A DNA stretch of 24,331 nucleotides from a virus (lineage: Duplodnaviria > Heunggongvirae > Uroviricota > Caudoviricetes). The stretch lies in the IMG/VR virus record IMGVR_UViG_3300042946_000144, positions 1 to 24,331 of that record. One strand, given 5' to 3'. Below are positions 2,395-20,375 of the stretch, piece by piece. Within the stretch, counting starts at the first letter, position 1, and every line of letters begins with the position of its first letter. The notes below the pieces were generated by a model. It was not told the origin of the DNA, made no database searches, and saw only the letters and a program-made list of their open reading frames with translations. The translations under genes were made by a program, and so were the position numbers.

Positions 2395-5300
2395 CTATCG
2401 TAGGTTGTTCTCTTTTTGAATTGTGATATCAAACTCTTTAGCAAAGTCAGAATCAAATATAGAGATGTATGTCAGAAGGGACTTTCCAAGAGGAATCATT
2501 CTAGCTCCGTATTTTATAGGCATAGATTTCTGTCTAACTTCATCTGGAGTTTCTGTTTCATCATCCAAATCCATTCCTGTGATTTCTGCAGAAAGGTTAG
2601 ATATAAATCTCTCAATATCGGACATTACAGAAACTGCAGGGAAAACACTACCTGAAAGCACTCTTTGGAACTCTTCAGGGCTATAGAAGAAGCTCACCTC
2701 ACCAATAAACTTATCAATAACCTTTTGGTAATATCTAAATCTATTCTTTGTAGCTCTATCATCATCATCGTCTGGAGCCATAAATCCAAGAGAGAATGAA
2801 GCTCCTAATAAAGAAAGTAGGATGGCTAACTCTTTCATCTGATTTCTTAGATTTGTTCTAACCAAATCAATGAAATCATCCTTTGACATGTTTAGTTCCT
2901 TTCCTGTTTGTTTTCTATACTTCTCTCTGAAGTCTTCATACATTTTATCCAATGCCTCAACACCCCTATCATTCATATTAAGGATGTTCATGACGTTAGA
3001 AGTCTTGTCCTTAATTGATGTTCCTATTACGTAGAACCAGAGTCTCATTCTACCAACGTCATACTTTTCACCTGTAATTGTGCCATCATCCTCAATTCTT
3101 ACAGAAAAATCATCACTAACCTTTCTAAATTCAGAGAAACGTGTATCAATCAGTTTTGGAATCCAGTTTTTGAAAACCATCATGCTTCTGGTCCAAACAG
3201 ACATTTGCATCTTGTTTATGTCTGATTCAGACAAACTACCTGTAACATTTGCAGAAAGTCTTCTTGTTAGGTTTGAAAGTCTTAACATCTCATCCCTATT
3301 TGACATATCCAGTCCTGGGATGACCAACTTACCGTTCTCAAGTTTTTTGGTAGCAGATATTGATTTTGTTCTTTTGAGCTCTTCGATTTCCTCTTCTATC
3401 TTCTTTTGAGTTTCTCTAAATACAGCCGATGAGTTTCCTCTTCCTTTATATTTGTTTTTAACAAAGTCTCTTATGTTTACAATCTTTCCATTATCTACCA
3501 TTACGTTATCCAGAAGAGTTAGAAACATTGTTTTCTCAACGTGTTGCTCTGGTTCTCTCATAAAGAACATTAACATGTCTGAGAAGTTCTGTCTTGTCAA
3601 CCTAGTCATTCCTGCTTTCTTCAAGTTCTCATAGTTAGGATCTTCTTTCAGAGGAAGGAATGCGTCTATTAATTGTACAAACATTTCTCTTTCTTCAGAG
3701 CTTGAGAATCTGTTTCCAACCAACTTTGTCTCATTTGCTAGAAACTCTCTAGCTTTAAAATAGTTTCCAGACTGAGCAGCCACCTGTAAGTTTGCACCAA
3801 ATATATTAATTGCACCTGCCATAAAATCAAGACCAAGTGTCTTAAGTTGGAAAGCTCTATTAGCAGCATCCATTGTTTTTATAAGGGATGTTGCTGAAGG
3901 GTTATCGTTAGGTTTAAACACTTCTCTACCAGTCACCTTATTAACAGCCTTTTTGATAAAATTAGCTACATTTCCAATACCAAGAGGAACGTCTGCATCT
4001 GAAAGAACATACTTCTGTCCATACAGAAGGTTTCTCATAAACTGATCAAACAGCTGTGTATTCTCATCATTTCCTTTTAGTTCCTCAGGTTTTCCGTCAG
4101 CATCAAACACAACATCTCCTGCTCTATTGGTTTTCAAATGGTTCTTGAACTCCTCAACGGTTTTAACAAGTTTAATCTGACCTTCAACCTCAGACATGTA
4201 TTTATACTTCTCCACTTGCTGAATGTACAATATCATGTTCTTGAAAAGATCTTCACTCACCTGAGAGTAGTCATTTACACCAGGAACATCTGTTGCTGAG
4301 AAATCATATGTGTAATATCTAGGAATAGAATTCTCTAATTCACCTGTGATTTCATTAATGCTACCAAGACCAGCATCATCCATTTTCAAATCAAAATTGT
4401 TTGTAAAATTAGATACAGCTGTGGTTCCATAATCCCAAGCAAGAGATTCTGCCATTGTCTTTCTAACAAATGGTAGGAAAACAGAAGACGCTCTATTGCT
4501 TAAATAGTTTACATCTTTTGCTTCTTTGTTAAACTCTGTAATGAAATTGTAAAGATCCATCAAATCTTTGTCATTCATTATAGCCTTATACTCCTTAGAA
4601 AGCCATGTGTCTTTTGGATGTCTTTTGAGGATGTAGTTGTTCCATCCGTTAAAATCATCTCTATCAATATCCCATTTCTTTTTCTCCTGCTCTATCAATC
4701 TCTCTCTGATGTCTTGTTCTTCCTCATCAGTTTCACCATATCTATTCTTCTTGATACGTTCTATTCTTTTCTTCATCATCTCACTTGCCTCAGCTCTATA
4801 TGCATCTAAATCAACGTTCTCTTTAATCCATTCAATATCTCCACCTTTCAGAGCTTTTTCATCAATTGTTTTGTAGAAATCTTTAGAAAACTTCAAAATA
4901 AGTTTGTTGACAATACCACCTTTCTCATCCTTTTGATAGATGGATTGTACAAGTTTTCTAAGATCACCACCTCTTTCAGCAAGTCTTTTTCTAATGTCCA
5001 TCAGACCCTCAACCTTCTTAGATGCTTCCTGGGAAGCAATTGCTCTTGCATTACTTGTAAGTTTTACAAGAATACTCATAGCTGCTGTTGGAAGTTCTGA
5101 TGCACCTCTGAACATTGATGAAAGTCCTTTAACAACAGCTTCTGCACTTAACAGTCCTTTTACAAGGTTTCTTTCTCCAATATGTTTATCTGCAAACTTT
5201 TTATAAGCAATCTCCAAATCAGAATTTGTTTTTCTGATTGCTCTTGATTCCTTAGAAAGGTTAAACAACACTTGCTTTCTGTCAGCAAGAGCTTCTTTCT

Positions 5301-7320
5301 CCTCATCTGTCTTAGCATCTTTCTCCCATTCAGGATTGTAAATCAAGTCACTAAGTACATCATCCACCCTACCAAGAACAGATGCCACTTGCATAAAACT
5401 TCTCATCTCTTCAGCAAAGTCAGAGAGTTGTTTATTGTCAACATCTTTAGATGTAGCAGCCATGTCTTTATAGATCATGTCATAATCATTGATGATGTTA
5501 TCACCTTCTTTTCTCATAACAGTGACCACCTTAATCAATTCTGACATGTTCAATGTTCCTTGGGCCATTCTCATAGCTCTCTTGAGAGTGTTTATTCTCT
5601 CAACCTTAAACTCACGCTCATCCTCATCTGAAACCTCTTCTTTCTGAATTTGTTTTAAAATACCATTCAGTTCAGAAAGGAGTTTATCCAAAGCTTCAAA
5701 TCCTGTAGATTCAGATTTTTCAGAAACAGGAACAAGAGTTAGGTCTGTAATCTTTGTTGTATCTACAGATCCTATTGCTATTCCTTTTAGAGCTAGTGGA
5801 GATTTTGGGTCTGCCTTATCCAATAGTCCAAATTGCATGGATATTGGAATAGCTCTGTTCATACCAAACTCTTTCACTCCATAATTATCTCTCAGTATTT
5901 CCTTATATCTACCAAGCTGAATATTAAAAGCTCCTTGCTTAAACCATGCTATATCATCTCCTTTGATGTGCATGAACTTCCAGTCTATGATGTGTGTCTT
6001 ACCAGAAGGTTCAACCACAAGCATATCGATTGTACCAGCCTCTTTGTTTTTAGAATCATAAATAATCACCTCAGAGAATACAAGTGGAGTTTTACCATCC
6101 TTCGAAAGACTATCTATAAGTTCTACATAATAGTTTTCCAGCATGTCATACATCTGCGTATCTTCTAGATTGAACTTAGAAGGACGAGGATCAGCTTTTT
6201 CTTTTCTTGTACCATCCTTGTTAAAATATCTATCGTGTATTTCTTCAAAGTCTTTATGTCCCTTTACACCAAGAGTTCTTTTAAACTCATTAAACTTCTG
6301 CTCTTCTTTTGTAAACACCTTACCTGGGAACTTTGATCTATACCAAGCCTTCACTCTATCAGTAACCCTCTTAGTGATTCTTTCATATACACCTTCAGCG
6401 TTCTTTGCTTCATACCAGTTATTAGCTTCTTCTGAATCAAGAAGCAGAGGATCTGCTGCCTCTTTACCTTCCACTTTCTTTATACTATCCCTTGTCTCAA
6501 GGATCTTCTGCTGTATGTTTTTCTGTTGGTCAGATAGTTGGAACATCACACCTTCTGAAGCAATATCAGAAACTGTTCCACCAACTTCTCCTTGACTAAC
6601 TATACCAGCAACTTGTTCGAATATAGAGATGTTTGATTTTTTATAAATACCTCTAATCCAATCAGTTATAGCGTTCCACCAACTTCTGATCAAGCTTCTG
6701 TTCTCTTCTTGCATCAGTTCAGGGAACTCTGTAGATCCTTCGCTCTCATTTATAATCAACTCAGCAATCAGTTTATCTACAGCCTCTTTCTTAATCTTAC
6801 GAATATCTGGTTTACCATTAGGAAGCTGATATGCTTTATTGTTCTTATAGGCTTCAAGTGTTTGTTTGTATATCTTGAATCTTTCAATCTTAGCTATCAT
6901 CTCTGTTACCATCTTTGGATTGGTTTGTTCCAAGATGGCTGTAGCTAAATGGACCATTTCCTCTGTAAGGGCAGCATCTTCTTTTCCTTCAGAGACAGCA
7001 ATAACCCCTCTGACAAGATCAGCAACACCACTTGCAGAAGTTACATCTATCTCTGGATGTGCCTTAGCATAGTCTGTAAGTGATTGAATGTCAACACCCA
7101 TCTTCTTAGCAGCTTCTTTCACCTTATTCAAGGTTTCTTCTGAAGCTCTAGATGCAGGCATTTCTTCTATTTGCAACATTATTCCCTTCTCAACATCACC
7201 ATATTCTTCCTGAGGAACAACTCCATCATAACTATCCCATAGGTAGTAGGCAAGATCTTCACCTCTAGCTGCTACAAGATTTTTCCAAGAATCAAGATTT
7301 ACATTAGGACAAGTTGCCAT
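2395..7320 (-). CDS. Large virion cargo / ejection protein (1641 aa) with an N-terminal zincin-like domain and a PD-(D/E)xK nuclease domain
   Basis: ORF track. EEMVH at aa 120-124, G351VKGH, D432, D446WK448, Q468LGRY; long helical C-terminal region; hydrophobic LAILLSLLGASFSLGFMAP near the C-terminus. Coupled to the upstream RNAP gene with a 1-nt gap, as for the large proteins flanking crAss-like virion RNAP genes. Confidence 0.85.
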   Translation of the reverse strand: MATCPNVNLDSWKNLVAARGEDLAYYLWDSYDGVVPQEEYGDVEKGIMLQIEEMPASRASEETLNKVKEAAKKMGVDIQSLTDYAKAHPEIDVTSASGVADLVRGVIAVSEGKEDAALTEEMVHLATAILEQTNPKMVTEMIAKIERFKIYKQTLEAYKNNKAYQLPNGKPDIRKIKKEAVDKLIAELIINESEGSTEFPELMQEENRSLIRSWWNAITDWIRGIYKKSNISIFEQVAGIVSQGEVGGTVSDIASEGVMFQLSDQQKNIQQKILETRDSIKKVEGKEAADPLLLDSEEANNWYEAKNAEGVYERITKRVTDRVKAWYRSKFPGKVFTKEEQKFNEFKRTLGVKGHKDFEEIHDRYFNKDGTRKEKADPRPSKFNLEDTQMYDMLENYYVELIDSLSKDGKTPLVFSEVIIYDSKNKEAGTIDMLVVEPSGKTHIIDWKFMHIKGDDIAWFKQGAFNIQLGRYKEILRDNYGVKEFGMNRAIPISMQFGLLDKADPKSPLALKGIAIGSVDTTKITDLTLVPVSEKSESTGFEALDKLLSELNGILKQIQKEEVSDEDEREFKVERINTLKRAMRMAQGTLNMSELIKVVTVMRKEGDNIINDYDMIYKDMAATSKDVDNKQLSDFAEEMRSFMQVASVLGRVDDVLSDLIYNPEWEKDAKTDEEKEALADRKQVLFNLSKESRAIRKTNSDLEIAYKKFADKHIGERNLVKGLLSAEAVVKGLSSMFRGASELPTAAMSILVKLTSNARAIASQEASKKVEGLMDIRKRLAERGGDLRKLVQSIYQKDEKGGIVNKLILKFSKDFYKTIDEKALKGGDIEWIKENVDLDAYRAEASEMMKKRIERIKKNRYGETDEEEQDIRERLIEQEKKKWDIDRDDFNGWNNYILKRHPKDTWLSKEYKAIMNDKDLMDLYNFITEFNKEAKDVNYLSNRASSVFLPFVRKTMAESLAWDYGTTAVSNFTNNFDLKMDDAGLGSINEITGELENSIPRYYTYDFSATDVPGVNDYSQVSEDLFKNMILYIQQVEKYKYMSEVEGQIKLVKTVEEFKNHLKTNRAGDVVFDADGKPEELKGNDENTQLFDQFMRNLLYGQKYVLSDADVPLGIGNVANFIKKAVNKVTGREVFKPNDNPSATSLIKTMDAANRAFQLKTLGLDFMAGAINIFGANLQVAAQSGNYFKAREFLANETKLVGNRFSSSEEREMFVQLIDAFLPLKEDPNYENLKKAGMTRLTRQNFSDMLMFFMREPEQHVEKTMFLTLLDNVMVDNGKIVNIRDFVKNKYKGRGNSSAVFRETQKKIEEEIEELKRTKSISATKKLENGKLVIPGLDMSNRDEMLRLSNLTRRLSANVTGSLSESDINKMQMSVWTRSMMVFKNWIPKLIDTRFSEFRKVSDDFSVRIEDDGTITGEKYDVGRMRLWFYVIGTSIKDKTSNVMNILNMNDRGVEALDKMYEDFREKYRKQTGKELNMSKDDFIDLVRTNLRNQMKELAILLSLLGASFSLGFMAPDDDDDRATKNRFRYYQKVIDKFIGEVSFFYSPEEFQRVLSGSVFPAVSVMSDIERFISNLSAEITGMDLDDETETPDEVRQKSMPIKYGARMIPLGKSLLTYISIFDSDFAKEFDITIQKENNLR
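5820..6390 (-). other. PD-(D/E)xK (RecB/Cas4-like fold) nuclease domain
   Basis: Ordered motifs GVKGH (6256-6270), SEVIIYD, AGTIDML (D432 at 6025-6027), IIDWK (5977-5991) and QLGRY (5905-5919) match the Gxxx H / E / D / D-x-K / QLxxY pattern of RecB-family nucleases. Boundaries are approximate. Confidence 0.85.
6760..7050 (-). other. Zincin-like domain with EExxH motif
   Basis: ADLVRGVIAVSEGKEDAALTEEMVHLAT (EEMVH at 6949-6963), with downstream EAVDKLIAE (E179 at 6784-6786) at the usual third-ligand position. Boundaries are approximate. Confidence 0.65.
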
Positions 7321-7321
7321 C

Positions 7322-10300
7322 TTAACATTTTGATTTTATAATTTTACCTAATTCAGTTTGAAGCTTTGAAAGAGTGGTCATCTCAGCTGGACTCAAACCT
7401 TTTGTTTTCTTTTTCTCCTCTAGAGCAGATATCTGTTCTTTGAGAGAAGCTTCATCTTCTGGTAGGTCGAGTTGTTCTTCTGAAACAATCTTACCATCTT
7501 TCTTCTTGAGACTCAAGAACTTATCAACAATTCCTTCATCAGCTGCCTCATTTGGAACTTTCAGGAAGTTGTTATCTATTACAGACTCTTTAGCCACATC
7601 ATAAAACTCATTTGCTCTGAAGCTATCACCCCAAGCATTGATCATCTTGTATACGTAGTTCAAGTAAACAATTCCATCTTTTCCTGGAGATTCGTACACA
7701 AAAGGATTTCCTGTAGAATCATACACCTTTTTAAACAGCCCTTTCTTTATGTATGAATAGTCACCCTTTTCACGCATTTCTTTCTTCTTCTGTTTTGTGA
7801 TGTTGTCTTCCCATCTGTATACAATGATATCATTTTGAGCTTCCCTGGTTCTCATTGAAATGTTCAACAACTGAGGAACATCTCCGTTTTTAATTGATGA
7901 TTGTATAGCCTTAGGGATAGTTTTTATTGGAAGATTGTAATAAAGTTTACCCTTCTTACTTTTTCCCCATCTAGCAATCATATAAGGAACTACATCATCA
8001 TTGTTCCAGTTGTTCCTTTCAAAGATGTTCAGGTTATAAAACTCCTCTAAGTTAGGAATTGTTTCTAATTTAGAAAGGGTTTTATTGTAAATTTCTTTGA
8101 AATCCTCATATGGCAATAACGAAGTAAATGATATTGGGGAGTTTGACACACCACTTTGAAGCACTGAAAGATTCTTTATTCCTTCATATAGAGGAGAGTT
8201 GATTGAATTTAGGTAGTCTCTCAGTTCACGGAATGCATATATCAAGCTGTTTTGGTCGTACACTTTATTATCTCTTCCTTTCACCTTGATGTTGTTCACC
8301 CCATCATCTGATATTTTAGTGGAGAACATTGGAGTTAACACATTGACAATGTGATTGTTCTCCATTGGGTGACCTGGTGTTTCTTTAACCTTTGTAACAA
8401 AGTCAAAGAGTTCTTTAGCCACACCACCGTTATCAATCATCACCTCTCTAACAAGCTTGTTGAATTCCTGGTTTGTTTGAACAGCCCAGTCAAACATGTC
8501 AGATACAGCCTTCTGTGAAACTTTTACAAAGTCTCTATCGCTCAAACCAACGTAAGGCAGTAAAACCTTTTCCATTACGTTTCTAACATTAGGCTTATCT
8601 GAGATCAAGATTGTAGAGAATGCATCTCTAAAGTCTGAAATTCTCTTAGCCAAGTTTCCAAGGAATGAATTCTTCAATATTTCATCTACTGAGGAGATGA
8701 TTGTGTTTTGAGCTTTTAACAACTGCATCAGCTTCTTGAATACCAAGTATGGATCATTGATTGTAGCTGTATCAAAGTTAGACCCCTGTGTTACGTAGAA
8801 CATTTGTTCAGCCAACTTAGCATATTTCAAAAACTCATTCAGGATATACTGCTGTTCAACCCTGCCACTAATATCAAACTTAGTCTTACCAATGTTTTCG
8901 AAAAGCTTTGTCTCTGAAGGAAGTTGATCAATATCAGCAAATCTTGCTTCTGTAATGTCTTCTTCCTCATCTATTGCATATTTTGAATCCTTCTTAATTT
9001 CAGAAACATAAGTTGCATTGAATATGTAAGAATATCCAGAATTCTCCAAGCTACGAAGGTAGTCACGGATGATTGGCTGATTCATAAAATAAGCCACAGT
9101 GTCAATAGGTACACCAAGCTTTGTAAGGAATAAGAATGTTCCAGCAACGTTAGGTGATGCTCCAAGTTCCATAATCCAAGGACCTTTGGATATATCCACA
9201 TATCCATCGATGAACTGACCTATGATATCAGAGATGTATTCATTATTAGCATTCTTGATCATAGAGAGGGTTGGAACCATTTTCCCATTAATCTCAATCT
9301 TGTTATACTTCTCAAACTTTATATCTATATCATTAGGATTCATTGTTCCTTTTGTGAGCCAAAACTTATCATCAGCTGATAGTTTGTCAAACCTTGATAT
9401 ATCGATGTATATAGGCTGTCTTTGATTCAAGGAGTGATTTGTCTGGTTTACAGCAGCAATACCAATTGCATACTTACCTGTTACAAATGCATGTCTCAAT
9501 CTTGACATAAAGTGTCTGTTCAACATGTTTCCTGTAGAGGAATAGTCAAACGAATCAAATCCAAGCTTCTCTGTAATTTTTTCAGAAAGTTCTCTTAACT
9601 GATCTGCAGAGTTTGGCTTGATCAATTGTCCAAAGTTTTCTTTACTTGATACAAGGTTTTCTCCAGATTCAACATAGGCATTTTGCAATGACTTCTTATA
9701 CATCTTTTCAAAAATCCTATCTCTAACTTCCTTTCTTGTGGACTTTGCCATGTATTTTATGAAGTCATCTGTAATCTCTTGTTCAGAGAATGCATCTTTG
9801 AAAATGTTAACCATTAGCTTTCCTGATGGAGATTCTTTTGACATATCCTGAAGAGCAAGTCTTTCTTCTTCTAGGATTCTGTCAAGCTCCTTCAGTTTCT
9901 CAGGTTTAATGAATTCCCCAGCATCAAACATTTCGTCAAACTTCTTTCTAGCTTCTGTTCTGTTTATTCCAAAGAATGGAACAGCTTTTAGCTCACCTTT
10001 AGAATTTGTAAATACATTCTTCAGGTAGATTGACAATTTATCAATATCAAAATCCGATCCAACCTTCTTAACCATTCCAGAAGGAATGATTACGTTATCT
10101 CCAAACTCTCTAGGAAGGAACTTTTTAATTACAAATGCATCAATTGAGTTTTGTTTCTGTGTAGGAATACGGAATGCAAGACCTCCCATGATTTTCTTAC
10201 CCTCTTCAGTGAGAACCTTTTCACCATCTTTCTCCTCATACATTCTTTCAAGAATCTCTTCATCTGACAAATCACTCTCAAACCATCTACCCACCATGAT

Positions 10301-13300
10301 TTCACATACACGTTTACCGTCTTTATCCTCATAGAACTTCAAAACATCTGATGTATATGCAGTCTTTCCATTTACAGTTTTCTTTTGGGCACGTACTGAT
10401 TCAAGCATTGTAGAAGGTAGCTGAACCTTAAATCCACCCACCATCTTTTGAGAAATAACTTCTCTATCAGCAATTGAATACAGGATGTTTCTTACAATCT
10501 GGTAAGCTGGAGTTGCTTCAATAATCACTTCTCCATTTAAGAATCCTGATAATGAATCAATTATGTTATCATTAACTTCTCTTTTTAAGATCTCTTCTCT
10601 CAGGGTTTCGCTAACCTTTGCTCTGTTTTCTTCAGGAATTGAGAACTCTCCATCCTTTTCTACAATACCCAGATCATTCAAAAGGTTTCTATATCCCTCA
10701 TCTGTAAGAGCCTTCAGAAGATTTTCATTGTTCTTTATCTCTTTATATAATGGAGATCTTTCTTCTTTTTGTTCTTCACTTAAAGTGATCCACTCTTTAT
10801 ATCTCTTTGCTGTGAACTTCTTACTTTTTTTAGAATCCGCAAAATCAACAGGAACTCCTGATTCCATAAAGTCCATTGTAATCAGCTTAGTCACTTGAGA
10901 ACCTCTTGTCAACTCATCATCCTTAGAGGGAACCTCTGACTGAACACTGATGATAGAGAATGGAATGTTTACAGTTCCTTTGAAAGGAGCTTCATTGAAT
11001 GTGTTGTCCTCATTATAAACAGCATTAGTTTCTGTTGTTCCAACCTTTCTACCACTCTTGAACACAATATAATCTACACCATCTCTTTGCATTTTGTTGT
11101 AAAGCTTCACTGAATTAGATTCAGGATCTAGCTCCATCATAACACGATATGACAGTGGATAGAATGCAAACTTATCCAACACTATATCATTCCATGGATT
11201 ACCATCGTTCTTGTTTCCAGATACGATAGGTTTTTCTGTGGTGTATGCACTTCTAACCATTGGGTTGCCCTGCTTAAGAAGTTCTATTTCTTCTGGGCTT
11301 AACTTAAGCTTCTTATGGTTTTTCTCCCAAGCAATATCATATCTGTATTGTCTTTCCTCATCAGAATTCCATCTACTAGCACGGATTCTGAAATTACGAT
11401 AGGATTTAAAATTGATTATACCAGAACCATCAGTCTCCTCATAGGCATCTTTATACAAATCTTGGTGTCCTGCTATTTCAACTAAAGCCTGAACATCTTC
11501 CATTGTTGCAGAAACAAACTGATCAGTAGTCATGTCTGTATACCCAATATCTCCAGGTTTATATCCCTTGTTCCAAACTTTATTCAAAACTCCATTTATC
11601 TCAGGAGAGTTAGAAAGAATTGCCTGACGAGGTGAGTTGAAGTTCTTGATACGCTTCAGCTCATCTGAATACTGATAAGGATCAGAATATAGAAGTTTGT
11701 GCATTTCTATATTGCTAATCATATAATTGATACTAAGAGCTTCCAAGTTTCTATCCAGGAAGATTTCATCCATTCCTGTTTTAGAATCTTCAAGGTTCAG
11801 ATTATCAGCAATAAATCCATCTTCTGTTAAAGATATTATATTGTAAGACTGTAGAACACCTTTGAAGTTCTTTGTTTCTTTCTGAACATAGTTTTTAATA
11901 GCAGCGTTTATCTTTGATTCAAACTTCTCATAAACACTTTCGATAGATCCTTCTGCTTTAACAATCTCATCATGCAGTTCTTTTCCAAGGATGTTTTTAA
12001 AGAATCTCATATCAGAAGATTCTCTCTGCTTAATGCCAGCTTTCTTCTGCTTATCTGTAAGTTTGAGCTTTACAATGTTTCTTCCTTCTCTAGAAAGTTC
12101 TAGCTCAGACATGAAATATCCTTTGAATATCTCGTTAACCAAGGATAGGCCATATCTCAAATCATTTACAGAAACAGCATTTCCCATGTAAAGCATGTGC
12201 TCCATAGACGCATCTCCAGGGACAAGGTTAAGATAGTATCCAGCAAGATTCAAGTTTATCTCCTGAATAAGTCTGTCTCTATAGTTTAGCTTTGAAGATT
12301 CTTTTCTCTTTCCTCTACTTTCATCCACTGTACCATCTACATATCCAGGTTTGAAAAGTTCTTCAGATCCTTTTATACGATCACCATTCTTAAGGAACAT
12401 TCTTTGAAGAATGTTAGAACCTTTTGTGAAAGAGTCTGTAAAAAGATATTCATATTTTGTTCCTTCAACAGCTTCCTTTGTAAACTCTGGAAGTTGTGAA
12501 AGGAAATCAAAAAGCTCACTCACTGCGTTTGTTCCTATGTAAGATTGAACACGTTCACCGTTTACATTAAAGAATGTACTTTCAAATTCAGGATTTTGAA
12601 TAGCTGCCTGAACAATACCAAGATCAAGTAATCTACCATCCATTTTGAGAACCTTTCCAGATATGGAAACTATCTCATCTGCATCCTTGATACTCTTGTA
12701 TATACCACCAACAGCATCTTTGAACCTTTCAATTTGATTATTGGGGAGTCTTAATATGTCAGCTTTGTTAAATTCAATTCCAAAATGTTTCAAGAACTCC
12801 ACCATTTCTGGAATTGTTCCAATCTTATCTTTCTTCAGAGAATCAGGAACACCTACATATTTCTTACCATCCGCAGACTTTTTGAAATATTTTGTTCCAC
12901 CTTTAATCTTTGCAACCAGATTTTCTCTAAATTCAGACTGAAGTTGTCTAGCAGCTGTTGAAAGATTTGAATCACCAACAACAACATCACCATTTTCAAG
13001 AACAAACACATTCTTTACAGAAGGGTTTTGTTTCTTAAATGTCTTCCAGAAAGCACTAATGAGATTCAAACCATTCTCGTTCTCAACCTTCTTAAGATCT
13101 AATCCAGGAGTTTCCCAACTAGACTTTGTAAGACGTGTGTACAAGTCTCTATAGTTAGGATCATTTTCAGCCATCTTTCTGATCTTCTCCAACATTTGTT
13201 CAACTCCTTGAGAGTTGTGGATATTGTTCATCAAGCTGATGTAAACCTTGCTCATAGGAAGAAGAACATATCCACCTATAGATGATTTTACAGGAACAGC

Positions 13301-16300
13301 TTTTCCTTCCTCATTTATCTTTTTCACACGCATTGTTGCAAGAAGAATCTTTACAGCAGGGCTAGCTTTTCTAAAACTATCTATCTTATTAGCTTCTCCC
13401 CATCCAGATTCTTTTGCTCTCTCATCACTCTTGATGGTTGCCTCATCATTTTCATCAAACTCAATAGAATACACTTTCAGATATTCTTCGTGTTTCTTAA
13501 CAATCTCATCCCACTGAGAGGTGACATTCTTCCAGAGAGCCACTTGTCTATCTATTGATGGTTTAACTTGTTCTCTTGTATATTTACCATCAACAATAGA
13601 TTTTTCAAAAGCTGCTCTGTTCTTAGCAAAGATTGTTTGAACATCTTCTTTCAATCTTGCATAAACTTCTTCTCTCTTGAGCTTTTCATTTATTCTAAAC
13701 AGGTCATCATCGTTCTTAATCATGTCAGTGAGCATCTTGTATGTCATGTGCTCAATGATTTCATGTCTCTGTTTACCAGATATTCCAATTAAGCTAAATT
13801 CACTATCTCCATCAGCATATGCTTCATTTATGTCAATTATTCCTTTTTTAGCATACGACAGATTTACGTGATAAGGGAAGTGGTTTTTGTAATAGCCATT
13901 TCCTATATTAGAGAAAAGCTTCTCTGTATTACTCAATGCTTTCTTTCCTGTAAAGAACTCTTGTATGAAGTTCTTCAGATCATAGAACAACTTGAGAATG
14001 AACGGTCTTCCACTGTTTGGTTTAGGTGGAACCTTTCCTTCTTGTACATAATCTCTGAATTCCTCAGCTAATTGTTCTTTAGCATCTTGATAGTTAGCAT
14101 CCTTATATGCAATTGTCTTACCTGTAACTCTATCTACAAAAGAACCTTTTCTGCTTCTGAATTCTTTAAGCACTGCATTTTGTTCATTTTCATCTGTGAA
14201 CATCTTCCAAACAGCCTCAAAGATTTCATGATATGCTGTACCAACTTCTGCATTCTCATAGATGTAAATAGCTCCATCCTTGAACATACCCCAAGCTTGT
14301 CTACCGTTTGTAGCCTGTATAACATTCTTCACTCTATAGACAGGAACATTTGGGAAGTTCTTTTTCAAGAATTCCTCAACCTTACTCCAATTCTCAGGTT
14401 GGAACTTTTCTATCTCATTCTCAATCAATAGGCGATATTGTTCCTCATCTTCGTCTGTAGAGGAAGCACTTGCTTGTCTAATCATCTCAGCTTCTTCCTC
14501 AGGAGTGAGTGATGCTGTAGATGCATCTGATACAGTGGTTGTAGAAGTAGGTTTAGCCCCACCTTCTAAAGTAGTTAGTTTAAATACTTTATTTTCAAAA
14601 TCTTTTCTATCAAATGTTTCTGTAAACTTCTCACCATCAGGATAAGTTACTTCAACTTCTACAGTATTATCTGTAGCACTTAAAACTTTAACTTTAGTTC
14701 CTTCATAAGATTCTTTTGAAGCAGCTCCATAATCAATGAGAGGTGTAGATATTTCTCCTGAAGGACTATCTATTGCTACTTCTTTATTTTCTAATACATA
14801 CTCAACTCCAATAACTTTAGCATCTGTAGGAGCAGCTGGTTGTGCAGGGGCTGGTGTAGGTTCTTCTTTCTTGTTTATTTTATTCTGAATCTCCTGAAGT
14901 TGAGGAGTGAGCTTCACTATTACGTATTTAGCAATGTTTGCTCTAGCCTCATCTTCTGATATGTTTTTTGCTTTTGCAAGTGCTGCTACAGTTTCCCCTG
15001 TGAAAGTAGGAGTGAAACCTTTAGCACCACCTGTAGTTACAAATTCTTCACCGTTTATAGAAAACTCTACAGATCCATAATCTGTTCCTTTAGAGTCAAC
15101 GATGTTCATTTTGTTTTTAGAAGATCCGCTTAAATCAAACTTATCTCCTGATGGAGTGGGGGTTGGTGTAGCTGTTTGAGCCTTAGGAGCACCTGGTGTA
15201 ACTACAGCTGATGTAGCAGCTTTCTTAGGAGCAGTGATTACAAACTCATCAGCATTGTCTGTTGTATAGAAATAAACACCTTCTCTGTTCACATCATCTT
15301 CACTTGTCAAAGGTCTCATGATTGTAGACAGAGGGAGTTCTTCCGCTTTTCTTCCCTTTTGAGAAAGCAGATATGTCTGATAGTTTGGCCAATAAGGCTT
15401 ACCATCAACTGTTCTTGTAATTGGAGAACCATCTTCTGCAAATCCTACAATCTCATAGTATGGTTTGTTCCAATAGTCCTTACCTGTAGCAAGTGTGGAG
15501 TTAACATTATTGTACATGTTCTCCAAGATCATGAGGATTTGATCTTTGTTATCCCTGATAGACGAAGGTGTGAATGGAAAATCTTTTCCTTTTCCAGACA
15601 TGTTCAACATCCATCTTTGAGAATTCTCATCAAAATCAAACCAAATACTGTTATATCCAGGTCTCTCTTTAGGAGTGCCCCAGTATATAATAGACTTCAA
15701 CCAACTAACTAGAAGTTTAGATTCTTCAGATTTAAGCCCTTTCTCAGGATCAACCATGTTTTTAGAAAGCTTATAGATAGCTTCATACACTGTACTAGCC
15801 TCATTCTTTGTAAGCTTTCTGTTCTTAAGTTTAACCAATCCAATACCAGGGATTCTTAAGAACACCCTTCCTAATGGAGTTTTGAATGAAACTGTTCCTT
15901 CAGAAGCAGTGTCATTTGTTGTTGGTATTTTCAGAACTGGATCTCTCTCAAGTTGGTCTTCTGTTACAAGACCTGCATCAACTACAGAAGTTGTAGCATC
16001 AAAGTTGGTCTTTGTATTACCTTCAGAATCAGTGAGTTTTACGTTTTGAGCAATTCCAAAAGAAGCATCCACTTTATGGAGTTCAAGAGTTGATTTTGCT
16101 AAGGTTGCTTTTCTCCAAGCAGCATATTGTTCCTTCACTTGATTCACCACTTCTGCAGGAGTATCTTTTCTAAACATACTCTCAGCCTTACCACTCTTTG
16201 ACCACTTAGCATCCCACTCAAGTTTCTCTGTAGGATATGTTTGGTAGATGGCACTATCTAGCTTATTATCTCCAGCCTTAAGAGGTTCACCATTTGTATC

Positions 16301-19300
16301 AACAAGTTCAAATGACCCATCGTCATTCAGAGAAACCATTACAAGAGCTATCACTTGATCTCTTGGAATAGACTCATCTATTACACCTTCCTCATTTTTT
16401 CTAAGATGGTCTATTAATCCAGGGATAAGTTGATCCTCGTTACTAGCTGTAATATATACACCACGGATCTTGTTTCTTAAAGACTCTTTTAGTTTTGGAA
16501 GATTTACACCAAACTTATTAGCTCTATCGTGATGAGGTTTTCCTTGGGAAGCAGCGGTTGCTCTTGGGAGAATAGATGTTTCTTTCTTACTCTCTGGTTC
16601 GTATGTTTTGCTAAACTCTTGTGTCTGAACACCTTTGTATTCAGTTCCAAGAATCTCGCTCATGATTTCTTTAGTCTTTAACAAGAGTCTCTCTTGTTCT
16701 TTCTGCTCTTCGTATTTCTTAACAGTTTCTTCAAACGCATCAAGAATAACACTCTTAGCTTTTAACTCCTTCTCATATTCTGACAGCTGACCTTGAATAG
16801 TTTCCAAACTTTCTCTAAGCTCTGATACAGTACGCTCATTAGGAACAATGTCAAGATCTTCCACTTGAGCAACAATATCTTCAACTGTTGCAAGGTCTTC
16901 TTTGAAATTAGGATTGAGTTTTAAGAAGTTAGGATTGGCTTTCAAGAAATCAACCCACTCTTGTCCCATGATTGTTGGAACATTTGGATAGGTAGATTCA
17001 AACTTCTTGATCAAATCTCTAACCAAATCAAGAGCCTTCTCAAGAGCACTCTCTGTGTTATCTATTATCTTAGAAAGAGCATTGATGTTTTCTCCTGTAG
17101 AAAGAATCAATGATTCTAATGAACTAACTTGTTCTTTAATCTCATTCAAGAATTCTCTACTGTCTGTAGGGAGCTCATCGATGTTCTGAGCAAGATCCAT
17201 TAAATATGACTGCGTAAACTCTATCTCATCTCTCTGAGCTTCAAGTTCTTGTATCTCAAGACGCAATTGTTCTTGCATTCTTGACAATCTGTTTGCAGCT
17301 TTAATAGCATTTGCTGTTACCTTCTTGAAGTTACTTTTCTTTGTAACCTCTCCAGCTTTGATTTTATTCTCAATAGCAACAAGCTCGTTTGTAATTCTTT
17401 CAAACTCTGTATACTTCTGCTGAATAAGTCTTGATGTTTTGTCAAACTTTTCAGTGAGATTGTTAAACAGATTGTTGATTATTTCAAGACGAGCACCTCT
17501 CTTCTTATTTATATCTTGAGTTGTCTTACCAGACTCTTCTCTATTCTGTATATCTGCCTGGTCTGCTGCAGTGAGAGTTCTACCAAAAGAGAAAATCCCT
17601 TCATCAAAACCTTCTTTAGGTTTGAATGAATCAAGTGACACTTGTACACTTTGAATCTTACCCTTGCTATCTTTGTATGTAAAATACAGGTCATCGTTCT
17701 CACTATCGTATGTAAGTCTTCCTGCAACCTTACCTTTCTTAGCTTTTCCAGTGTTCCAGTATACAACGTTGTTTATATTTCTAAGATAGAAATTAGCGTT
17801 CTCGTTTGTTTCAACAGAGCTAACCTTACCAAGCTTATAGCTAGCAAGAACTTCTTTCGACACATCTCTAATCTTACCAGAGCTATCCTTTATCTTAATT
17901 GTACCATCTGAGTTCTCACCAATGATTGTTAGTCTTGGGAACTTATAAACTTCATTACCGTCCTTATCATATTCAACAACACTTCCTAAGAAATACTCAA
18001 CACCAGTTTCATAATCCTTAACACCATCTCTGGTTTTAATTTTAACTGTAGGAGTGATTTCTTTATCTGGAAGTACTTCTGCTTGCTCCTCCTTATACTT
18101 CTCTGGAGATTTCATTATATCATTAAGCTCTTGTAAAATAGTTTTTCTACGAAGAGACATATCTAAATAATCAGAAAAATCTTCCTTCATCTGATCCTTT
18201 ACAGCATCTGCAACATCTAGGCTGTTTATACTAGAAACAGCTTTTGAAATAGCTGAAACTACAGCTTCTTCCTTAACTGCTGTTTCTAAATCACCTGCTT
18301 CCCAACTAGCTGACTGTCTTAAAACTTCATTTATGGACATATTGTCTATTCCAGTTGCAGAAATATCACCACCTAGTTCCATCAAACGTTTGTCATAGTC
18401 ATTGATTTTAGAAGATGCATAAACCATCTTATCAATAACTTCATCTGAATATATTCTATTACCTTCTGCATCCAGTCTTCCTCCATAGCGAATGTTGGCA
18501 GATTCATACAATGAGCTAACTTCTCCTACATGATTTTCAAACTCATTTAGTTTTTTCAGGTAGTCTTCTCTTGATAGATTGGTTGGAGCACCACCGTTTG
18601 CTTGAAGATTTTTATATCCATCTTCGGTAGAAGCTTGTTTTCTACGTTCATTTATATCATCATATATCATTTCAGCTCTACCATACTTCACTCTAGTAGA
18701 GATGTAATTGTAAGATTGATCGTGCTTATTATCTAAAAATCCAGATTTATTTCCTTCTCTTACAAACTGTTCACTTTCTTCTTGAAGTTTTATACCTCTT
18801 TGTAAAGAGTTTGTTCTTTCTATGAAAGCTTTTGTAAAAGTGTTATCAGGAGTGTTCAGTTCTGCAAGAAACTGTTTTGTATTTTTATCTCTTAGTTTAT
18901 TTTCTCCATACTTACCTTTTGCTTGCATCAATCCTCCAGAGAGTCCTCCAAGAAGTATACTCTCACCACCTTCCTTGGAAGTGATAGATTCTTTGAAAGC
19001 AGTTGCTGCTGAAGACCCAGCATTTGCAAATGCATCTAAAAGATCATCTGTTTCGTTTCCTTCATATGCTTTATTGTAGTAGTCCTGAACTCCTACATCA
19101 ATTGATGTTTGAAGAAATTCTTGTGCAGATTCTTTTGGATCAAATATGTAAGATTTTACAAATCTGCTAGCTTTTGATAATCTTGATGTAGGCTTTGCTA
19201 CAAATTTACCACCTTCAAGCATAACATCATCTGTAGACTTGAAAGCATTAGCAACAGCTTTGTTTGGTTTATAGGAGCTACCTAAAAGATAAGGAAGTTG

Positions 19301-20374
19301 TGTAAACTCTGTAACAGACAAAACTGCCATGTTAGCCATGAATGATGCATTACCTACATCTTTTGACAACTTGTCTATTTTCTCTAAATCTTGTCCAGTA
19401 GGATCAAATCCCCAAGTATCTCTATACTCTTGTATCTTCTTTTCTCTAAAAGCAGTTGCTGTACCAATAGACTCAAAAGAAGATTCTCCTGCAGAAGAAT
19501 ACAGAGACATTATAGATCTTCTTGTAAAGTCTTGTACACCTTCTACGCGAAGGAACTGGTCTGAAACCTTCTTTAACTCAGTAGCTGCTTTTTCAATATC
19601 ATATACACTCTTAATTTCCTTCTGAAGGATTTCAGCAGCTTCTATGTTCTTACCTTGAGAGAACAGACGTGCTGCACCTTTGTTAAGATTTGAGAAACTT
19701 TTCCAAGCTTCTGTATACTTTCCAACTTTATCAAACATTCCACCAACACCTTTTCCTATAACTCCAATTCCTTTCGCAGCAAGATTTCCTGAGTATATAG
19801 CACCAACTGCAAATCCTGTATTCTTAACTAACTTATCAAATAAGAAGTTTGCAGTGAACAAGTTATCTGGAGAATACCATGCTGCATTCTTCTCATTATC
19901 TGTATAGTAGTTTGGAAGATACCTATTATCTATTTCTTTATTTATCTCATCTAATGACTCACTGATTTCATTTTGCCATACGTCAGAGAGCTTTCCTGAA
20001 AAGAAAGATTTACCTATGCCATACACAGTACCAAGACCTCCAGCAAAAGTTGTAGCTGCAAGACCAACACCTTTCAATGTTCCATTTACAGCCTTGTCAA
20101 GGAATGATTGGTTTCTACCGTGTATATCTTCATTGTTTGCTCCGTATATAACGTTGTTATATCTTCCTGTTAACAGGTCATCAACTTCAGATTGATAAAC
20201 AGTTGACTGCTTTGCACCAGTATCAATAGGAACTGATGCGAACAATGACTCAAGTGTATCTTTTGATTGTCTGTAAGCAAGACTTCCTGTTAACTGAGCA
20301 GGACCACTGTTGTCTAAAGGAACAATATTTCTTGGTCTACCAGGTAGGTTTACAGGTTTTAACTCTTCAGGCAT
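7322..20374 (-). CDS. Giant virion-packaged RNA polymerase polyprotein (4350 aa), crAss-like single-chain double-psi beta-barrel RNAP fused to ejection-type and zincin-like regions
   Basis: 13,053-nt uninterrupted ORF. Catalytic loop GSDFDIDK (D3441-F-D-I-D3445), upstream RIPTQ (R3402), TDGSG (T2981), LDKF and FKSGRKVG, downstream GKYAIGIAA and GYVDISK. DFDID in place of the cellular DFDGD is characteristic of crAss-like virion RNAPs such as phi14:2 gp66 (established knowledge). Confidence 0.93.
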   Translation of the reverse strand: MPEELKPVNLPGRPRNIVPLDNSGPAQLTGSLAYRQSKDTLESLFASVPIDTGAKQSTVYQSEVDDLLTGRYNNVIYGANNEDIHGRNQSFLDKAVNGTLKGVGLAATTFAGGLGTVYGIGKSFFSGKLSDVWQNEISESLDEINKEIDNRYLPNYYTDNEKNAAWYSPDNLFTANFLFDKLVKNTGFAVGAIYSGNLAAKGIGVIGKGVGGMFDKVGKYTEAWKSFSNLNKGAARLFSQGKNIEAAEILQKEIKSVYDIEKAATELKKVSDQFLRVEGVQDFTRRSIMSLYSSAGESSFESIGTATAFREKKIQEYRDTWGFDPTGQDLEKIDKLSKDVGNASFMANMAVLSVTEFTQLPYLLGSSYKPNKAVANAFKSTDDVMLEGGKFVAKPTSRLSKASRFVKSYIFDPKESAQEFLQTSIDVGVQDYYNKAYEGNETDDLLDAFANAGSSAATAFKESITSKEGGESILLGGLSGGLMQAKGKYGENKLRDKNTKQFLAELNTPDNTFTKAFIERTNSLQRGIKLQEESEQFVREGNKSGFLDNKHDQSYNYISTRVKYGRAEMIYDDINERRKQASTEDGYKNLQANGGAPTNLSREDYLKKLNEFENHVGEVSSLYESANIRYGGRLDAEGNRIYSDEVIDKMVYASSKINDYDKRLMELGGDISATGIDNMSINEVLRQSASWEAGDLETAVKEEAVVSAISKAVSSINSLDVADAVKDQMKEDFSDYLDMSLRRKTILQELNDIMKSPEKYKEEQAEVLPDKEITPTVKIKTRDGVKDYETGVEYFLGSVVEYDKDGNEVYKFPRLTIIGENSDGTIKIKDSSGKIRDVSKEVLASYKLGKVSSVETNENANFYLRNINNVVYWNTGKAKKGKVAGRLTYDSENDDLYFTYKDSKGKIQSVQVSLDSFKPKEGFDEGIFSFGRTLTAADQADIQNREESGKTTQDINKKRGARLEIINNLFNNLTEKFDKTSRLIQQKYTEFERITNELVAIENKIKAGEVTKKSNFKKVTANAIKAANRLSRMQEQLRLEIQELEAQRDEIEFTQSYLMDLAQNIDELPTDSREFLNEIKEQVSSLESLILSTGENINALSKIIDNTESALEKALDLVRDLIKKFESTYPNVPTIMGQEWVDFLKANPNFLKLNPNFKEDLATVEDIVAQVEDLDIVPNERTVSELRESLETIQGQLSEYEKELKAKSVILDAFEETVKKYEEQKEQERLLLKTKEIMSEILGTEYKGVQTQEFSKTYEPESKKETSILPRATAASQGKPHHDRANKFGVNLPKLKESLRNKIRGVYITASNEDQLIPGLIDHLRKNEEGVIDESIPRDQVIALVMVSLNDDGSFELVDTNGEPLKAGDNKLDSAIYQTYPTEKLEWDAKWSKSGKAESMFRKDTPAEVVNQVKEQYAAWRKATLAKSTLELHKVDASFGIAQNVKLTDSEGNTKTNFDATTSVVDAGLVTEDQLERDPVLKIPTTNDTASEGTVSFKTPLGRVFLRIPGIGLVKLKNRKLTKNEASTVYEAIYKLSKNMVDPEKGLKSEESKLLVSWLKSIIYWGTPKERPGYNSIWFDFDENSQRWMLNMSGKGKDFPFTPSSIRDNKDQILMILENMYNNVNSTLATGKDYWNKPYYEIVGFAEDGSPITRTVDGKPYWPNYQTYLLSQKGRKAEELPLSTIMRPLTSEDDVNREGVYFYTTDNADEFVITAPKKAATSAVVTPGAPKAQTATPTPTPSGDKFDLSGSSKNKMNIVDSKGTDYGSVEFSINGEEFVTTGGAKGFTPTFTGETVAALAKAKNISEDEARANIAKYVIVKLTPQLQEIQNKINKKEEPTPAPAQPAAPTDAKVIGVEYVLENKEVAIDSPSGEISTPLIDYGAASKESYEGTKVKVLSATDNTVEVEVTYPDGEKFTETFDRKDFENKVFKLTTLEGGAKPTSTTTVSDASTASLTPEEEAEMIRQASASSTDEDEEQYRLLIENEIEKFQPENWSKVEEFLKKNFPNVPVYRVKNVIQATNGRQAWGMFKDGAIYIYENAEVGTAYHEIFEAVWKMFTDENEQNAVLKEFRSRKGSFVDRVTGKTIAYKDANYQDAKEQLAEEFRDYVQEGKVPPKPNSGRPFILKLFYDLKNFIQEFFTGKKALSNTEKLFSNIGNGYYKNHFPYHVNLSYAKKGIIDINEAYADGDSEFSLIGISGKQRHEIIEHMTYKMLTDMIKNDDDLFRINEKLKREEVYARLKEDVQTIFAKNRAAFEKSIVDGKYTREQVKPSIDRQVALWKNVTSQWDEIVKKHEEYLKVYSIEFDENDEATIKSDERAKESGWGEANKIDSFRKASPAVKILLATMRVKKINEEGKAVPVKSSIGGYVLLPMSKVYISLMNNIHNSQGVEQMLEKIRKMAENDPNYRDLYTRLTKSSWETPGLDLKKVENENGLNLISAFWKTFKKQNPSVKNVFVLENGDVVVGDSNLSTAARQLQSEFRENLVAKIKGGTKYFKKSADGKKYVGVPDSLKKDKIGTIPEMVEFLKHFGIEFNKADILRLPNNQIERFKDAVGGIYKSIKDADEIVSISGKVLKMDGRLLDLGIVQAAIQNPEFESTFFNVNGERVQSYIGTNAVSELFDFLSQLPEFTKEAVEGTKYEYLFTDSFTKGSNILQRMFLKNGDRIKGSEELFKPGYVDGTVDESRGKRKESSKLNYRDRLIQEINLNLAGYYLNLVPGDASMEHMLYMGNAVSVNDLRYGLSLVNEIFKGYFMSELELSREGRNIVKLKLTDKQKKAGIKQRESSDMRFFKNILGKELHDEIVKAEGSIESVYEKFESKINAAIKNYVQKETKNFKGVLQSYNIISLTEDGFIADNLNLEDSKTGMDEIFLDRNLEALSINYMISNIEMHKLLYSDPYQYSDELKRIKNFNSPRQAILSNSPEINGVLNKVWNKGYKPGDIGYTDMTTDQFVSATMEDVQALVEIAGHQDLYKDAYEETDGSGIINFKSYRNFRIRASRWNSDEERQYRYDIAWEKNHKKLKLSPEEIELLKQGNPMVRSAYTTEKPIVSGNKNDGNPWNDIVLDKFAFYPLSYRVMMELDPESNSVKLYNKMQRDGVDYIVFKSGRKVGTTETNAVYNEDNTFNEAPFKGTVNIPFSIISVQSEVPSKDDELTRGSQVTKLITMDFMESGVPVDFADSKKSKKFTAKRYKEWITLSEEQKEERSPLYKEIKNNENLLKALTDEGYRNLLNDLGIVEKDGEFSIPEENRAKVSETLREEILKREVNDNIIDSLSGFLNGEVIIEATPAYQIVRNILYSIADREVISQKMVGGFKVQLPSTMLESVRAQKKTVNGKTAYTSDVLKFYEDKDGKRVCEIMVGRWFESDLSDEEILERMYEEKDGEKVLTEEGKKIMGGLAFRIPTQKQNSIDAFVIKKFLPREFGDNVIIPSGMVKKVGSDFDIDKLSIYLKNVFTNSKGELKAVPFFGINRTEARKKFDEMFDAGEFIKPEKLKELDRILEEERLALQDMSKESPSGKLMVNIFKDAFSEQEITDDFIKYMAKSTRKEVRDRIFEKMYKKSLQNAYVESGENLVSSKENFGQLIKPNSADQLRELSEKITEKLGFDSFDYSSTGNMLNRHFMSRLRHAFVTGKYAIGIAAVNQTNHSLNQRQPIYIDISRFDKLSADDKFWLTKGTMNPNDIDIKFEKYNKIEINGKMVPTLSMIKNANNEYISDIIGQFIDGYVDISKGPWIMELGASPNVAGTFLFLTKLGVPIDTVAYFMNQPIIRDYLRSLENSGYSYIFNATYVSEIKKDSKYAIDEEEDITEARFADIDQLPSETKLFENIGKTKFDISGRVEQQYILNEFLKYAKLAEQMFYVTQGSNFDTATINDPYLVFKKLMQLLKAQNTIISSVDEILKNSFLGNLAKRISDFRDAFSTILISDKPNVRNVMEKVLLPYVGLSDRDFVKVSQKAVSDMFDWAVQTNQEFNKLVREVMIDNGGVAKELFDFVTKVKETPGHPMENNHIVNVLTPMFSTKISDDGVNNIKVKGRDNKVYDQNSLIYAFRELRDYLNSINSPLYEGIKNLSVLQSGVSNSPISFTSLLPYEDFKEIYNKTLSKLETIPNLEEFYNLNIFERNNWNNDDVVPYMIARWGKSKKGKLYYNLPIKTIPKAIQSSIKNGDVPQLLNISMRTREAQNDIIVYRWEDNITKQKKKEMREKGDYSYIKKGLFKKVYDSTGNPFVYESPGKDGIVYLNYVYKMINAWGDSFRANEFYDVAKESVIDNNFLKVPNEAADEGIVDKFLSLKKKDGKIVSEEQLDLPEDEASLKEQISALEEKKKTKGLSPAEMTTLSKLQTELGKIIKSKC
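9180..11450 (-). other. Catalytic core of the crAss-type RNAP (two double-psi beta-barrels)
   Basis: TDGSG 11420-11434; LDKF 11168-11179; FKSGRKVG 11039-11062; RIPTQ 10157-10171; DFDID 10040-10054; GKYAIGIAA 9452-9478; VDISK 9185-9199. Confidence 0.88.
13900..14400 (-). other. Zincin-like metallopeptidase-fold domain with HExxE motif
   Basis: AWGMFKDGAIYIYENAEVGTAYHEIFEAVW (H2049-E-I-F-E2053 at 14216-14230), then EQLAEEFRDY (14057-14071) and FYDLKNFIQEFF, the pattern of the MPTase/zincin domains in phage polyvalent proteins. Boundaries are approximate. Confidence 0.8.
16650..17490 (-). other. Long predicted coiled-coil region (about 280 aa) in the polyprotein
   Basis: L/I/E/K/Q-rich heptad-like sequence, e.g. 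LSRMQEQLRLEIQELEAQRDEIEF and LRESLETIQGQLSEYEKELKAK; judged by eye. Confidence 0.7.
18920..20080 (-). other. Gly/Ala-rich hydrophobic segments at the polyprotein N-terminus (candidate membrane-inserting region)
   Basis: TLKGVGLAATTFAGGLGTVYGIG (aa ~99-121), TGFAVGAIYSGNLAAKGIGVIGKGVGG (aa ~186-212), ASFMANMAVLSVTEFTQLPYLLG, ILLGGLSGGLM. Membrane role is inference. Confidence 0.6.
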
Positions 20375-20375
20375 A

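Follow-up and report, generated by a model that had tools for sequence, protein, structure and literature searches.

Why should giant phage proteins that are otherwise almost free of cysteine (Cys) carry one at exactly the two ends where their genes meet? The question arises in a stretch of 24,331 nucleotides (nt) from a tailed phage (IMG/VR record IMGVR_UViG_3300042946_000144, positions 1 to 24,331; hereafter the window), whose source genome is a complete 111-kb virus record with a genome-wide Cys content of about 0.9%. On the minus strand, the gene of a 4350-amino-acid (aa) protein meets that of a 1641-aa protein in the order TGT (7325–7327), TAA (7322–7324), G (7321), ATG (7318–7320), GCA ACT TGT (7309–7311). 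The first TGT encodes Cys4350, the last residue of the larger protein, and the second encodes Cys4 of the smaller one. We report that this arrangement is one instance of a terminal Cys rule that is real, extends across the order Crassvirales and is apparently undescribed.

The counts that first drew attention to the junction, made in a sequence-only reading of the window, held up on recounting: two of only three Cys in the cargo proteins lie here, and their codons are 16 nt apart, start to start. The 4350-aa protein has two Cys, at residue 3357 (within KRVCEI) and at residue 4350, residues 1–3356 being Cys-free; the 1641-aa protein has a single Cys at residue 4; and a 902-aa protein and a partial 385-aa open reading frame (ORF) have none, the four together making 7,278 aa. 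The reported absence of Cys from the last two is correct within the window, with the refinement that the 385 aa are the end of a 1303-aa protein whose two Cys fall outside it. A post-hoc estimate puts at about 2e-5 the chance that two of three Cys would fall within these 18 positions at the termini. An error in the genetic code or in the choice of start was considered and rejected, as table 11 gives intact ORFs and the ATG is conserved and the first after the upstream stop. The layout of stop, one base and ATG, typical of translational coupling, is common to both cargo junctions (20374–20376 and 7320–7322), with Cys only at 7320–7322.

By homology, the 4350-aa protein (7322..20374, minus strand) is a Crassvirales virion RNA polymerase (RNAP) in which module A (gp67 of phage phi14:2, gp47 of crAss001) is fused to module B (gp66 and gp50, respectively), and the 1641-aa protein (2395..7320, minus strand) is module C (gp65 and gp49). 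The former matched crAss001 gp47 over residues 80–772 (E 1e-24) and 1944–2115 (E 4e-9), and matched phi14:2 gp66 (E 1e-18 to 7e-21) as well as crAss001 gp50; its DFDID catalytic motif (D3441; 10040..10054, minus strand) aligns with relatives of both polymerases. The A/B seam lies at approximately residues 2115–2198 (13781..14032, minus strand) and is Cys-free, at a place where split relatives have a Cys pair. Module C, the final chain member and without a C-terminal Cys, matched a cr108_1 homolog (E 1e-13) and crAss001 gp49 (E 5e-5). Searches of Pfam and PHROGs returned nothing useful for the giant proteins, and phmmer of the window's RNAP half found no match in the PDB, though gp66 itself is deposited there. 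The Cys-free 902-aa protein upstream (20376..23084, minus strand) is cargo-like, corresponds to crAss001 gp46 by position only, and stands outside the linked chain, so that its class served as a control. Modules A, B and C correspond to the three RNAP-associated cargo proteins of crAss001 virions, which need partial unfolding to pass the tail (PMC10172136). Packaging and ejection are established for the crAss001 and phi14:2 orthologs, and by homology the window's cargo proteins are probably packaged and ejected as well.

The remaining Cys of the window's polymerase, Cys3357 (10304..10306, minus strand), lies 84 residues N-terminal of the catalytic motif and is often, not always, retained in relatives: a Cys within 150 aa before the motif occurs in 52/67 close RNAPs and 59/141 others, and phi14:2 gp66 has no equivalent. 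It takes no part in the link.

We surveyed about 340 loci, with end counts deduplicated at 60% identity and with counts for the starts of modules B and C permitting an alternative Met within 45 residues. The comparison shows a rule of placement. Cys was found at 115/117 RNAP ends and 80/81 module C starts, and both window residues are invariant in the corresponding end alignments. Module A ends in Cys in 43/44 cases on the same strand and in 10/10 where A is inverted onto the opposite strand, and module B starts with Cys in 60/64 (55/64 on a strict count), the four misses being misfiled A+B fusions and hence free starts. At free ends the residue is nearly absent (0/47 A starts, 1/99 C ends), as it is in the control class (0/19 C-ends and 0/13 N-ends). 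A held-out set, assembled later from another collection, had both Cys at 52/53 junctions, the single miss being a genetic-code artefact, and none at free ends (0/13 and 0/44). Among some 80 close relatives, Cys stands in the last few residues of nearly every RNAP and at position 3–4 of every module C, and the sequences around the terminal Cys split into many unrelated types. With an interior Cys frequency of 0.026% in these relatives, the probability of at least one Cys in ten residues is 0.0026, as against 98–100% occupancy at facing ends; by lineage, the chance for any ten interior residues is 0.0006–0.013. Chance was rejected as the cause of the terminal pair on these counts. The conservation and co-conservation that the sequence-only reading had proposed to look for are thus present throughout the survey.

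Within 15 aa of each facing end there is exactly one Cys in 185/185 pairs. In phi14:2 the residues are C1797 of gp67, C3 and C2179 of gp66 and C3 of gp65; in crAss001 they are C2339 of gp47, C5 and C2404 of gp50 and C5 of gp49. Most of the apparent exceptions were artefacts, namely intron-type breaks within module B, N-gapped assemblies, a wrong genetic code (L275) and mis-picked starts (L098, L312). Upstream of the cargo block, p-crAssphage KP06_gp47 (L093:1-1552) ends in Cys-Arg and is followed by a gene without an N-terminal Cys, possibly by chance.

The pair follows the way in which the chain is cut into genes. Separate modules (phi14:2, crAss001, DAC15, cr111_1, cr128_1) go with a Cys at the end of A, at both ends of B and at the start of C. 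Fusion of A with B (the window, Suoliviridae, cr108_1, Flavobacterium phage Fpv1) leaves just the B/C pair, and fusion of B with C (Intestiviridae; p-crAssphage, cr3_1, cr271_1) just the A/B pair. Complete A-B-C polyproteins (L252, L253 and L256; 5,005, 5,542 and 5,636 aa) contain no Cys at all. As A and B are fused in the window phage, only the B/C link, Cys4350 with Cys4, remains. Additional links between RNAP and module C in L044 (526 aa), L063 (422 aa) and L339 (395 aa) have Cys at both ends. Comparison across these genomes thus shows gene fusion removing the pair, and splitting or insertion adding one. The joint loss of both Cys in fused lineages, which the sequence-only reading had proposed as a check, is borne out and supports its suggestion of a substitute for gene fusion. 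Short BLAST searches found no remnants of docking cassettes inside fused proteins.

In one close relative (L075:0-14827), A and B are separate with the break at the window's seam, and the Cys pair there belongs to a near-copy of the B/C end cassette, the start of its module B matching the start of the window's module C across 116 residues; the near-duplication suggests that copying of the cassette created or preserved the split. The additional links lie at L044:8115-9693, L063:7600-8866 and L339:13688-14903, and a further link between RNAP and module C, at L133:13425-16929, also has Cys at both ends. Three crAss-type polymerase homologs, each about 3,000 aa long (L314:4399-14320, L327:5182-14182, L286:1-6676), lie in surroundings that look bacterial and lack A and C neighbours; they are rich in interior Cys and have none at their ends, and may be domesticated or part of a different kind of element.

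Given that the two Cys codons of the window read as TGT-stop...TGT only 16 nt apart, we considered a nucleotide signal, by which ribosomes would hop from the Cys codon at the stop to the matching one downstream and make a fusion product, as in T4 gene 60 bypassing. This is exceedingly improbable. Only 56/185 pairs have the Cys as the final codon before the stop, where a take-off codon would have to stand, codon distances within pairs run from 11 to 1,769 nt, and the pair is kept across gaps of up to 1.7 kb and inserted HNH-like genes. In crAss001, gp47 lies on the strand opposite gp50, yet the pair is kept. The inverted genomes already rule out ribosome hopping of the T4 gene 60 type, which needs a matched landing codon a short, fixed distance along one mRNA, as a general mechanism, and with the gaps, the HNH-like genes and the 56/185 count they exclude hopping or translational coupling as a general cause. 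Gene adjacency as the cause of the pair was likewise rejected by the inverted genomes. Because it survives gene inversion and HNH insertion, the Cys pair is, as far as comparative evidence can tell, a device that acts at the protein level. The HNH-like genes (247 and 230 aa, assigned by motif only) sit exactly at cargo junctions that retain the pair (L016:9274-9976 and L063:8866-9568).

At the protein level, the equivalence of Cys pair and genetic fusion could also mean that the residues are handles for an enzymatic or thioester ligation, split-intein-like or transpeptidase-like, into a true polyprotein, and a zincin protease domain has been reported in gp65 orthologs (bioRxiv 10.1101/2020.03.07.982082). 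We regard ligation as very unlikely. The Cys position floats, from 1 to 10 residues from the C-end and from 2 to 7 from the N-end. The flanks are unconstrained: 0–9 residues follow the C-side Cys, 18 different residues occur before the N-side Cys (Asn in only 13/185), and there is no His-Asn or segment of intein length. In addition, gp66 by itself is an active polymerase in vitro (PMC10136315).

We modelled the two window termini together, as had been suggested from the sequence, taking 45 aa from the end of RNAP and 42 aa from the start of module C, each with a 24-row alignment. The complex scored an ipSAE of 0.65 against 0.02 for the best of three controls; the score mark used is reached by 58/80 solved complexes and 2/110 mismatched pairs, counts that are only rough for custom alignments. 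Runs agreed in at least 96% of contacts, with a partner predicted local distance difference test (pLDDT) of at least 90. In the model, RNAP residues 4336–4350 (7325..7369, minus strand; model interface residues 31–45), a docking segment with the consensus G-x-I-L-K-x-x-C in which Gly and Cys are conserved, pack on residues 21–29 of module C, in the second helix of a hairpin. The latter belongs to a predicted N-terminal docking module of residues 1–36 (7213..7320, minus strand; pLDDT 81.5), with a CPN motif, helices at 10–19 and 21–30, and interface residues 1–5 and 21–29. Cys4 and Cys4350 are among the contacts (2:4 with 1:45) at an expected error of 1.4 Å, which denotes contact and not bond geometry. 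The docking module had no sequence match in the PDB and no Foldseek match, a 42-aa hairpin carrying little signal, and recall of a solved complex is unlikely because no similar sequence or fold was found in the PDB. The model supports a docking of the two ends in which the predicted Cys pair touches.

Such a contact would also be expected if the two thiolates shared a metal, as in a zinc clasp or hook, with acidic residues or the Cys pair of a second chain copy completing the site. This non-covalent bridge would form in the cytoplasm and account for the same pattern of presence and absence; it makes an oxidant unnecessary and so fits anaerobic hosts, and the capsid zone holds room for about six copies of each protein (PMC10172136). 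Zinc clasps and hooks, with two ligands per chain (CxxC or Cys/His), differ from the ends seen here: two Cys at one end occur in 0/185 pairs on either side, His makes up only 0.5–0.8% near the ends, and no conserved third or fourth ligand appears across end types or in either end alignment. We therefore judge a metal bridge unlikely. Of the sequence-only proposal of a tail-to-head disulfide or shared metal site, a link is supported by co-conservation, loss on fusion and the modelled contact, and the metal version is less favoured.

The two sides of a junction also vary together. With the Cys masked, similarity between C-ends correlates with similarity between partner N-ends (r 0.67, and 0.62 after subtracting RNAP-core similarity, a value reached by 0/500 permutations), and in 41 close relatives r is 0.73 as compared with 0.13–0.15 for the RNAP core. 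Covariation alone is no proof of co-evolution, because adjacent DNA is inherited together. One pair type does, however, occur both at the adjacent B/C junction of the window's clade and, in relatives of crAss001, at the A/B junction with module A inverted; the resemblance is modest (mean similarity 0.19 for either side, with backgrounds of 0.11 and 0.12) and does not depend on adjacency. These data bear on whether each terminal Cys might act alone, through like-with-like disulfides, attachment to another part of the virion, or lipid or other modification. Several copies are packed, and homotypic disulfides occur in crAss001 gp57 (PMC10172136). Both Cys nevertheless come and go with the break and are never a feature of free ends, cognate end types covary, and the heterodimer model brings the two residues together; solitary action is accordingly quite improbable.

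We consider it probable that the facing ends are cognate docking modules and that an inter-chain disulfide locks them together in place of a peptide bond, oxidation following non-covalent docking. The RNAP cargo block would then be one linear chain, A-B-C, encoded as one to four or more pieces, with every break bridged by a portable cassette: on one side a short C-terminal docking segment with a single Cys at its end, on the other the cognate N-terminal module, which opens with a single Cys. We lean, if only slightly, towards regarding this combination of docking and Cys lock as a two-part, reversible stand-in for the peptide bond that is used across the Crassvirales to order separate giant proteins (about 0.6–0.7 MDa in all) into an injection thread. 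The ends would dock non-covalently first, while still in the reducing cytoplasm, and 1:1 loading could be set in this way. Oxidation of the Cys pair would come later, in the released virion or during passage of the periplasm, and the disulfide would hold the partly unfolded proteins head to tail while they are drawn in order through the narrow tail. After delivery, cytoplasmic reductants would undo the bond, and the purge of all other Cys would prevent wrong pairings. The disulfide, the time at which it forms and the part it plays in ordering ejection are inferred.

Because phage assembly occurs in the reducing cytoplasm, and because neither an Erv/Alr (Erv1/Alr) oxidase nor a thioredoxin was detected in this genome, the disulfide itself is unlikely to drive packaging stoichiometry, as the sequence-only reading had supposed, and docking first with oxidation later fits better. 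Inter-subunit disulfides are present elsewhere in crAss001 virions, in the tail and gp57 (PMC10172136).

Several observations weigh against a disulfide-locked chain. A search of this genome yielded no thiol oxidase that could act as the oxidant, and the model gives contact between the two Cys rather than the geometry of a bond. Strictly anaerobic gut lineages retain the pair but relax the purge of interior Cys (0.135% against 0.006–0.026%). End-type covariation is weak among distant genomes (r 0.10) and partly due to neighbouring position on the DNA. Finally, in a few genomes the last Cys lies further inside, as in cr273_1 and L103, at about 50 and 32 aa from the end. In the chain members at L097:244-17629 and L103:2129-6374, the last Cys is followed by about 50 and 32 residues with a low-complexity tail, possibly through loss of a stop codon. 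The interior cargo Cys frequency of 0.135% belongs to a mostly gut set (L138–L261 with GenBank gut phages), and 0.026% and 0.006% to two environmental sets (L001–L137), a difference consistent with a relaxed purge in anaerobic hosts.

How giant injected proteins are loaded and ordered, including the extrusion order of the cargo, was stated as open in the structural work on crAss001 (PMC10172136). The rule described here holds throughout the order, to which the commonest phage of the human gut belongs, and names testable residues in two cultured phages (C2339/C5 and C2404/C5 in crAss001; C1797/C3 and C2179/C3 in phi14:2). In that work, reduced and non-reduced crAss001 virion samples were analysed by mass spectrometry (PMC10172136), so that the raw data of the non-reduced runs could test the link without new experiments. 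If a docking and Cys lock is indeed at work, it would explain the free fusing, splitting and moving of these genes, and evolution might split, fuse, invert or insert cargo modules freely. It would also give a quick aid to annotating where genes start and how the chain is ordered, as well as a family of small end-joining pairs that appear to be orthogonal.

Elsewhere in the window, a 163-aa protein (1830–2321) bears five Cys close to its termini (CPTC...C and CGC) and is followed by a Gly/Asn-rich, fibre-like protein (2–1810) whose first 603 aa are Cys-free. Starts of the form C-x4-6-C-x7-C, resembling that of the 163-aa protein, occur at other fibre genes of the same genome and its relatives.

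The closest known systems are the cargo blocks of Cellulophaga phage phi14:2 (gp67-gp66-gp65, gp66 being PDB 6VR4) and crAss001 (gp47-gp50-gp49), which have homologous proteins, the catalytic motif and the terminal Cys rule in common with the window and differ from it in that A and B are fused in the window. The fusion of the three cargo genes into a single polyprotein in some phages has already been published (bioRxiv 10.1101/2020.03.07.982082). Cargo Cys or a linkage through them went unmentioned in the phi14:2 and crAss001 literature that we examined. The sequence-only reading knew of no such mechanism, and the literature searched, with incomplete coverage of subscription papers, likewise gave no description of terminal Cys pairs.

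Ejection proteins of the Schitoviridae (N4 vRNAP gp50, DEV gp71-73) are strongly depleted in Cys, which has been ascribed to the oxidising periplasm (PMC11445570). The ejected cargo described here resembles them in this depletion, and differs in that the N4 and DEV proteins have essentially no Cys at all, a T7-like RNAP and no reported terminal pairs. A periplasm-driven depletion would explain the low-Cys background and not the terminal pair. The docking domains of modular polyketide synthases and nonribosomal peptide synthetases are short C- and N-terminal modules, cognate and exchangeable, by which separately encoded giant proteins are placed in linear series in lieu of a covalent linker. 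Unlike the link proposed here, they are non-covalent, have no known conserved Cys pair and act on folded cytoplasmic enzymes. In nicked A-B toxins, a single inter-chain disulfide keeps the chains joined in transit and is reduced on delivery. Such toxins come from one cut precursor, whereas in the Crassvirales separately translated proteins would join, and would do so repeatedly, through up to four or more links.

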